This document shows, one piece after another, positions 9,400-9,659 of a stretch of DNA of 64,000 bases. Under the pieces are notes generated by a model that made no database searches, had not been told where the DNA came from, and was given only the letters and a program-made list of their open reading frames with translations. Each line of letters starts with the position of its first letter. Position 1 is the stretch's first letter. A program made the position numbers and the translations under genes. Origin of the DNA: Eledone cirrhosa (lineage: Eukaryota); NCBI GenBank assembly GCA_964016885.1, contig OZ024747.1:34906001-34970000 (forward strand), given 5' to 3'.

Positions 9400-9659
9400 A
9401 TATCCAGTGCTTTTATCGAGAATGACACAGCTAGAGACTATTCTATAGCGATTAGGTCTTCAAAATGTTTATTATAAACATACAGAATATTTTCGAATAT
9501 TCTATGTCTATATTCACATATATATCGCTATTTCAGAGCATTTATTCCAATTTCTAATTTCTGCCGGACCGGCAACCGCTCTTTCAAACCAGTTCCTGTA
9601 CACAGCTAAGTATTCTATAAGTCTCTAGCTGTGTCATTCTCGATAAAAGCACTGGATAT

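Follow-up and report, generated by a model that had tools for sequence, protein, structure and literature searches.

A young hammerhead retrozyme of Eledone cirrhosa whose insertions carry the one-sided tail of PLEs

The window, i.e. the whole 64,000-bp stretch of Eledone cirrhosa DNA that was analysed (contig OZ024747.1 of assembly GCA_964016885.1, positions 34,906,001 to 34,970,000), includes an array of a 310-nt repeat that is a real, young and dispersed hammerhead retrozyme with an unusually strict footprint of Penelope-like elements (PLEs). As a rule its insertions consist of two head-to-head arms, only one of which carries a short additional tail. Since this one-sided combination of a long and a short end is a hallmark of PLEs, the retrozyme is very probably moved by PLE machinery. 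We regard as likely the fuller reading that it is a non-autonomous retrozyme mobilised in trans by a PLE RT/GIY-YIG protein, which would start at two fixed sites of one, probably circular, RNA, and each insertion probably involves two independent primings.

The array has a tandem period of 310 nt in the window and is organised as follows (unit position 1 is the base after the predicted ribozyme cut, window position 9697):

8923-9439, minus strand: left retrozyme arm of 1.67 units (310 nt each), ending on its outer 3' side in the "short" end, unit position 130
9438-10483, plus strand: right retrozyme arm of 3.37 units, ending on its outer 3' side in the "long" end, unit position 165-167
9438-9439: head-to-head junction with a 2-nt microhomology or overlap, joining unit positions 234 and 52
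10447-10483, plus strand: one-sided tail of 37 nt (unit positions 131-167), present at the right end only and opening with a short (AU)n tract
8904-8922: left (TA)n target tract, common to the short end of the PLE pair at 4889-8903
10484-10511: right (TA)n target tract, common to the element at 10512-10870

A preliminary description of the window had placed the flip of the array at 9439/9440 and had both hammerhead-sense 3' ends pointing outward; the flip is indeed there, at 9438-9439 by virtue of the 2-nt overlap, and both ends face TA tracts. The asymmetry of the ends (130 on the left, 165-167 on the right) was absent from that description and proved to be the key feature. Neither a reading frame of at least 120 aa nor terminal direct repeats were found within 8923-10483, and the repeat has the constitution of a retrozyme, that is, a tandem non-coding unit in the range of about 150-450 nt with a low GC content and without LTR, PBS or PPT.

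The hammerhead features of the array are the following:

9660-9702, plus strand: type I hammerhead motif with a 6-bp stem I, the core, a stem II whose first pair is U.U and a stem III of 2 bp that is palindromic; the cut is predicted to follow 9696
9970-10012 and 10280-10322, plus strand: further hammerhead motifs of the right arm, from a motif scan
9047-9089 and 9357-9399, minus strand: hammerhead motifs of the left arm, from a motif scan
9636-9651 paired with 9709-9724, plus strand: 16-bp stem, the predicted closure of the hammerhead domain

The motif is thus present at all five complete positions of the array. The hammerhead call consists of a motif reading and the fold, Rfam at gathering score having returned no matches; the fold of 9630-9730 has a z of -5.75, and none of 200 shuffles was as good. 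In a hand-compiled list of fixed variants, none of the 38 variant types falls on the 16 core positions and all eight variants at paired positions preserve pairing, which is conserved on the ribozyme-sense strand only. Avoidance of the core together with the maintenance of pairs suggests selection on the ribozyme-sense RNA. Self-cleavage of the transcript is predicted, and by analogy with what PMC7761336 describes, the very short palindromic stem III suggests that cleavage would be dimeric.

Genome-wide, one ribozyme haplotype alone gave 4,541 exact core matches, dispersed over many loci. The outer ends of the copies lie at two constant sites, one 130-139 nt and the other about 165 nt beyond the predicted ribozyme cut: 1,107 exact matches to the long end break at unit position 165, the next base being A in 98 of the first 100 matches listed, and 1,281 exact matches to the short end break at unit position 130/139. 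The control position 226 showed 33 breaks in 8 loci, one of which is a true end. From the overlap of both end lists on C1 we estimate a total of about 2,000 insertions. L140 and L228 share a variant at unit position 173, and in both the long end is the less common one at 172 instead of 165; the base adjoining the start site may shift it in these two loci.

The geometry of the insertions was read from paired end lists covering the first 217 Mb of C1 (85 long-end and 100 short-end rows) and from fetched loci. All 52 head-to-head neighbours on C1, among the matches listed in these first 217 Mb, were of the long plus short kind, which is more than chance because an independent draw of ends would give about half like plus like. 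A second sample, the first ten insertions listed, was picked by the ribozyme core alone and was therefore blind to the ends; it included eight head-to-head insertions, all mixed, one single-armed insertion and one cut by a gap. A third sample was made of 40 loci that the patterns had left unpaired (20 of the 33 long ends and 20 of the 48 short ends were fetched). Thirty of them were complete, every one mixed, seven were single-armed, one was cut by a gap, one had its far end outside the stretch and one had a 12-nt tail stub as second arm, so that a second arm is found in 32 of the 40 when the last two are included. Counting all complete two-armed insertions (n = 80), 78 were mixed, two were unclassified and none was like plus like; this total is partly circular since 18 of the 80 were fetched because both ends matched, whereas the counts of 52, 8 and 30 are not. 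The tail measures 26-42 nt among two-armed insertions and is found at one end only. About one in ten of the sampled insertions is single-armed (7/40 and 1/10), and about nine in ten are bidirectional.

Three tail-to-tail neighbours on C1 proved to be separate insertions lying side by side or, on the two sides of a gap in the assembly, a duplicate. L128 and L062 (C1:56.25-56.26 Mb) show an identical junction on both sides of an N gap and are a probable assembly duplicate. Independent short-read contigs of run X2 included 12 joints of a minus arm to a plus arm among the 15 listed, and the geometry is therefore not an artefact of the assembly. Runs X1, X3 and X6 gave one 340-nt contig of the unit each; the type of these runs is unrecorded and the SINE used below as a control is also there at low depth, so that they are uninformative on RNA. 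The possibility, raised in the preliminary description, that other copies form only large satellite blocks or end in LINE-type tails was not borne out, as the copies are dispersed short arrays and carry no such tails.

These insertions can be accounted for by the following series of steps. The PLE protein would nick a TA tract on both strands, and the two 3' ends so produced would act as primers. The first cDNA would start at unit position 130-139, the place of an internal (AU)n tract that may be able to pair with the target. The start of the second would lie about 35 nt further 3', which would leave the tail on one arm only. Each RT would then circle the template several times and stop at random, and the cDNA ends would be joined by microhomology-type repair. 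At the inner joins, overlaps of at least 2 nt were found in 32 of the 52 that are free of filler, as compared with 18% expected, and 28 of the 80 joins include filler.

A cut linear monomer is not the template, since the inner ends are spread round the unit (chi-square p = 0.08); three of 156 lie within 5 nt of the cut. Among 68 insertions 29 haplotypes were found, each fixed through both arms in nearly all units, and for three variants, each of them fixed in the two arms of a single locus, the assembly has no further multi-copy locus. The presence of one haplotype per insertion together with the lack of a second locus points to a single-unit bottleneck, most simply a monomer circle, which, judging from the sequences, would more probably than other forms be the main template. 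The proposal of the preliminary description that a circular RNA is mobilised in trans by a PLE can then be divided in two: mobilisation in trans is upheld by the one-sided tail, but the circle is deduced from the haplotypes, and three loci fit a multimer better.

The three loci are L140, L210 and L215, in which unit-specific variants are found in the same outer cycles of both arms, an arrangement not obtainable from one monomer circle. It could be explained by a multimeric template, a joint template switch or a later conversion between the inverted arms. In-register calls in two other loci, L106 and L133 (of nine calls), were threshold artefacts. In L215 both arms shift in register, the outer two cycles having one common haplotype and the inner cycles another, as if two RTs had switched template together or copied one chimeric RNA. 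A possible but rather unlikely reading built on such loci keeps the same PLE and the same start sites and takes as template an uncut linear multimer of the donor array, or a multimeric circle; arrays would then shrink with each transfer and regrow by unequal exchange, a sequence of events that is unlikely to the same degree. Block duplications that occurred after insertion in long arrays (L200, L035/L036) are in agreement with it, and they also mean that array length and some of the homogeneity need not come from the template. In addition, the anole PLE worked in vitro mainly on unprocessed RNA (PMC11167929), and in vitro cleavage was reported for only one of nine Xenopus dimers (10.64898/2026.07.22.740005). 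On the other hand, the three in-register loci stand against 57 other variants that are unshared between arms, and in L199 a new haplotype with seven variants is fixed over at least 20 units in both arms and has no matching donor. Donors of L210 and L140 with a matching haplotype were not found in the assembly either, although donors may be missing from a single assembly. L233 has its retrozyme arms within a higher-order direct repeat in which the same inner junction occurs many times; this is a secondary, DNA-level amplification of one insertion.

A more detailed form of the monomer-circle reading, plausible if tentative, takes every two-armed insertion as the record of one reaction by a PLE dimer on a single 310-nt circle, where two cDNAs would be started about 35 nt apart from the nicked strands of a TA tract and both rolled round the circle, the trailing RT would displace the leading cDNA, and the start-site module would be the cis signal. 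That the module and not the ribozyme would have this role follows from the existence of a clade of three retrozyme families that keeps the start sites and swaps hammerheads (see below). If the dimer-on-circle reading is correct, the module is recognised without sequence homology to the partner, and the insertions are direct genomic evidence of two things: that PLEs use the circles of animal retrozymes as substrates, and that all PLEs owe their head-to-head-plus-tail structure to an obligatory priming on two strands and not to self-priming.

Self-priming, in which a single target-primed cDNA would fold back to generate the second arm, was proposed for PLEs from palindromes at inverted junctions (PMC3846280). 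It would account for the single haplotype in both arms and for the three loci with variants in register, and two junctions do lie at a 16-nt inverted repeat internal to the unit. However, an arm made by fold-back cannot outgrow the arm that served as its template, nor can it gain a tail, and the short-ended, tail-less arm is the longer one in 35 of 78 insertions, and in 24 of these the difference exceeds one unit. Moreover, the inner ends of the two arms are unrelated (within 15 nt of each other in 7 of 78) and the inner phases of both arms are evenly spread. The frequently longer tail-less arm and the independence of the inner ends disfavour fold-back, which we consider improbable; two primings per insertion remain our preferred explanation.

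Other elements of the same genome were used as controls for the ends and targets. Flanks of the retrozyme are TA-like (at least 10 of 12 matching) at 133 of 156 ends, most misses being end calls shifted by family variants. Target duplications are unreadable in pure TA, and the only clear case is L034, the sole insertion in a non-TA target, which has a 15-nt direct repeat. Three autonomous PLE families showed mixed long plus short ends in 17 of 17, 7 of 7 and 11 of 13 cases; the last of these is a Hydra-type family with a ribozyme matching that of the retrozyme, and its other two cases are one long plus long and one short plus short, which span 0.8 and 5.5 kb with other sequence inside and may be separate insertions. 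A SINE, which we take to be tRNA-type, was head-to-head in 3 of 64 copies; 25 copies had target duplications of at least 10 nt, and four had TA at their 3' end. A LINE, which we take to be RTE-like, showed no head-to-head pairs among 11 3' ends, all of which end in (GAT)n, and seven of these 11 are on TA. The comparison of flanks and junctions with PLE, RTE and SINE insertions that the preliminary description had called for was hence decided by the one-sided tail, which is common to PLEs and absent in the SINE and the LINE; the (TA)n preference did not discriminate, since the RTE-like LINE shares it. Two head-to-head SINE copies are found in the window (24076-24277 and 62093-62491), and the former differs from PLE-type pairs in that its ends are equal and it has a direct target repeat of 11-18 nt. 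Many tandem SINE joints were found in run X2.

The site at which the second primer anneals is internal and variable in L1 twin priming. Mobilisation of the retrozyme by a LINE (RTE- or L2/CR1-type) through such a process could be argued from the seven of 11 RTE-like LINE ends on TA, from the three head-to-head SINE copies, one of which has a target duplication, and from the non-TA target and 15-nt direct repeat of L034. We nevertheless find it very improbable. A LINE-mobilised SINE would have long target duplications and a single 3' end with a simple-repeat or poly(A) tail that it shares with a LINE. The 310-nt repeat has two fixed ends, always paired unequally, and neither of them is a (GAT)n, (ATT)n or poly(A) tract; the SINE and LINE controls are without such a pair of ends. 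Target duplications, for their part, are also made by PLEs (PMC3846280). It is hardly credible that the repeat is a DNA-level satellite, spread by extrachromosomal circles and recombination and inverted by DNA repair without reverse transcription, because in spite of the local block duplications in long arrays the outer ends keep to two positions while the inner ones are random, the 3' ends always point outward, and the variants conserve pairing on the ribozyme-sense strand only.

The retrozyme lies in the window among PLE-type insertions of comparable structure:

967-1542: head-to-head PLE end stub with a 60-nt tail on the right and a hammerhead-like core at 1299
4393-4821: head-to-head pair with an 89-nt tail and a hammerhead-like core
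4889-8903: head-to-head PLE pair with coding remains and an 86-nt tail on the left
10512-10870: head-to-head PLE-type stub with a 29-nt tail, whose hammerhead motif, at 10670, is intact
28522-32660: head-to-head PLE pair with coding remains and a tail of about 130-150 nt on the right
51140-61232: head-to-head PLE pair with an 81-nt tail on the right, interrupted by the nested pair at 54267-58996
54267-58996: nested head-to-head PLE pair with a 138-nt tail on the left

The preliminary description had named six of these as PLE-derived pairs that share the geometry of the array. The geometry holds for all of them, each with a one-sided extension, but the pair given as 51140-54240 really reaches 61232. 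Protein remains prove a PLE origin for four (4889-8903, 28522-32660, 51140-61232 and 54267-58996), and 967-1542 is tied to PLEs by the occurrence of the same end downstream of a GIY-YIG-type frame in L126; for 4393-4821, however, no convincing link to a reading frame was found, and its features are the hammerhead-like core and the tail. A relative of the stub at 10512-10870, located at 44074-44292, follows decayed GIY-YIG-type coding remains. The tails of the pairs in the window are family-specific and vary from 29 to about 150 nt.

Other repeats were also observed. A very short, GC-richer, non-coding family (1581-1764, 23745-23937 and 49005-49175) is head-to-head with a 73-80-nt tail and lies in TA tracts; a motif scan found no hammerhead core in it, and its copies are probably stubs of another PLE-mobilised element. 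Positions 49481-51048 are a 1.5-kb stretch of nearly pure (TA)n with periodic single-base interruptions. Decayed frames at 24485-24889, with weak Pfam HTH matches, and at 27454-27840 resemble pieces of a Tc1/mariner-type transposase. L124 and L138 include a TA-flanked tandem unit of about 590 nt that is unrelated to the retrozyme.

Two sister retrozyme families match unit positions about 59-196, a region that includes both start sites. They also have the one-sided tail, and their hammerheads are different, the C3:G8 pair being replaced by U3:A8. They are located as follows:

L120:4300-5150, L101:1-500 and L169-L190: sister family with a 321-nt unit
L182 and L187: third retrozyme family

Among the PLE families examined, a set without the Naiad type, none shares the start-site region, which was found in the sister retrozymes only; the homology to the 3' end of an autonomous PLE by which non-autonomous derivatives are usually recognised is thus lacking. 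Intact PLE frames are present in the genome, with 784 aa (18 frames), with 713 and 772 aa in Hydra-type families and with 923 aa in a Poseidon-type family. The 784-aa frames belong to a very young Neptune-type family; all 18 are unbroken, 0.3-0.4% apart, and match Pfam RVT_1 and GIY-YIG. This family has a 40-nt tail that opens with an (AU)n tract and 3,159 tailed ends, and no hammerhead core was found in its unit. In the Neptune-type loci L300-L318 a second, upstream frame runs into the RT frame near a T-run, and window positions 13112-13215 and 49225-49328 resemble the Neptune-type 3' region. Two families that we take to be Poseidon-type have tails of 29 and 39 nt; the one at 10512-10870 ends about 139 and 168 nt past its own ribozyme cut. 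The Hydra-type family mentioned above (L266:3205-7940, L234-L271) has an unbroken frame, a full type I hammerhead and a 68-nt tail. Its hammerhead equals that of the retrozyme in the core and in stem II, including the U.U first pair, the rest being unmatched, and this PLE may be the donor of the retrozyme ribozyme. Exact matches to this PLE are strand-skewed (2,269 forward, 724 reverse), which hints at a large tandem block.

The preliminary description had pointed to another PLE of the window as the type of machinery involved:

39421-42783, plus strand: Hydra-type PLE with its frame (39649-41780) in three pieces, an 88-nt tail and a 25-nt inverted long-end stub at 39421-39445

Compared by motifs, without a tree, with the description of Hydra in PMC8557442, this element has a C-terminal GIY-YIG, RWK-like and DKT motifs, a CxCX5C linker, no CCHH and (TA)n targets; Pfam was silent on it, and unbroken 713-aa frames of its family occur elsewhere in the genome. 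It is therefore a Hydra-type PLE with the same geometry, but its tail is 88 nt long and it has no sequence in common with the 310-nt unit; no fewer than four other PLE families suit the part of the partner as well or better. Pairwise divergence (0.28% for the Neptune-type family, 1.06% for the retrozyme, 1.37% for the 39649-41780 family and 1.74-2.30% for the others) does not decide the partner because the PLE sets are top-scoring matches and biased low. Our tentative first choice is the young Neptune-type family with its 40-nt tail, followed by the Poseidon-type families with tails of 29-39 nt as possible partners; the Hydra-type family with the matching ribozyme stem is an unlikely one, as is any other PLE, and the 39649-41780 family is the least likely.

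PLEs have been proposed as partners of retrozymes in PMC7229834, PMC7761336 and 10.64898/2026.07.22.740005, on the grounds of ribozyme type, co-occurrence and pLTR phylogeny. The mobilisation of retrozymes by PLEs is hence a published hypothesis; the enzyme that spreads them had been argued for from such indications only, while here the mark of PLEs is borne by the insertions themselves, and the controls come from the same genome. No such junction-level evidence was found in print: in the literature searched, in which few subscription papers were covered, retrozyme arrays that are inverted and end in PLE tails are not described. The reaction of PLEs is poorly understood, and the retrozyme family offers a natural record of it, in which the strict long plus short pairing and the independent arm lengths favour two primings per event over fold-back. 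The family supplies a minimal substrate of 310 nt with two start sites defined to the nucleotide, and the genome has natural PLE frames that are unbroken, so that the reaction can be tested in an existing in vitro assay.

The metazoan non-LTR retrozymes of Cervera and de la Pena 2020 (PMC7229834) and of Li, Clavereau and Pollet 2026 (10.64898/2026.07.22.740005) have the same AT-rich, non-coding unit of 150-450 nt with one type I hammerhead, dispersed in short arrays. Here about nine in ten insertions are two-armed with a PLE tail; the words "inverted" and "head-to-head" do not occur in the main text of PMC7229834, nor do "tail", "head" and "junction" in that of 10.64898/2026.07.22.740005. In Xenopus, homology to pLTRs is described for 24 of 57 retrozyme families (10.64898/2026.07.22.740005), whereas none was found over the unit body of the present one, in which circle and cleavage are predicted from sequence. 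Non-autonomous PLE derivatives usually resemble the 3' end of the partner (PMC8557442). Those of Chlamys, e.g. MRC1, are likewise non-coding, multicopy head-to-tail and mobilised by PLEs, but they resemble the autonomous 3' end and are mostly without hammerheads; no resemblance of this kind was found for the retrozyme.

A tail of 30-40 nt at one end and an adjacent inverted copy are described as hallmarks of PLEs (PMC8557442; PMC3846280). The retrozyme is like the endonuclease-positive PLEs (Penelope/Poseidon, Neptune, Hydra and Naiad; PMC3846280, PMC8557442, PMC11167929) in its inverted, 5'-truncated copy, its tail, its AT-rich or (TA)n targets, the occasional target duplication and the two internal start sites, and it differs from them in having no reading frame, a pure 310-nt tandem structure and arms of many units. 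Furthermore, the published texts on these PLEs speak of an inverted copy "often" present and of an "optional" tail, whereas the mixed pairing of the retrozyme is strict. The purified protein of an anole PLE nicks and extends both strands, with two internal start sites that bound the tail and no difference between strands in the start site used (PMC11167929). To this the retrozyme adds that the two start sites are used one per side. In L1 twin priming, too, two target ends prime, giving a head-to-head inversion with a microhomology join, as a minority product with non-overlapping arms. In the retrozyme, by contrast, inversion is the rule, both start sites are fixed and the two arms overlap in sequence.
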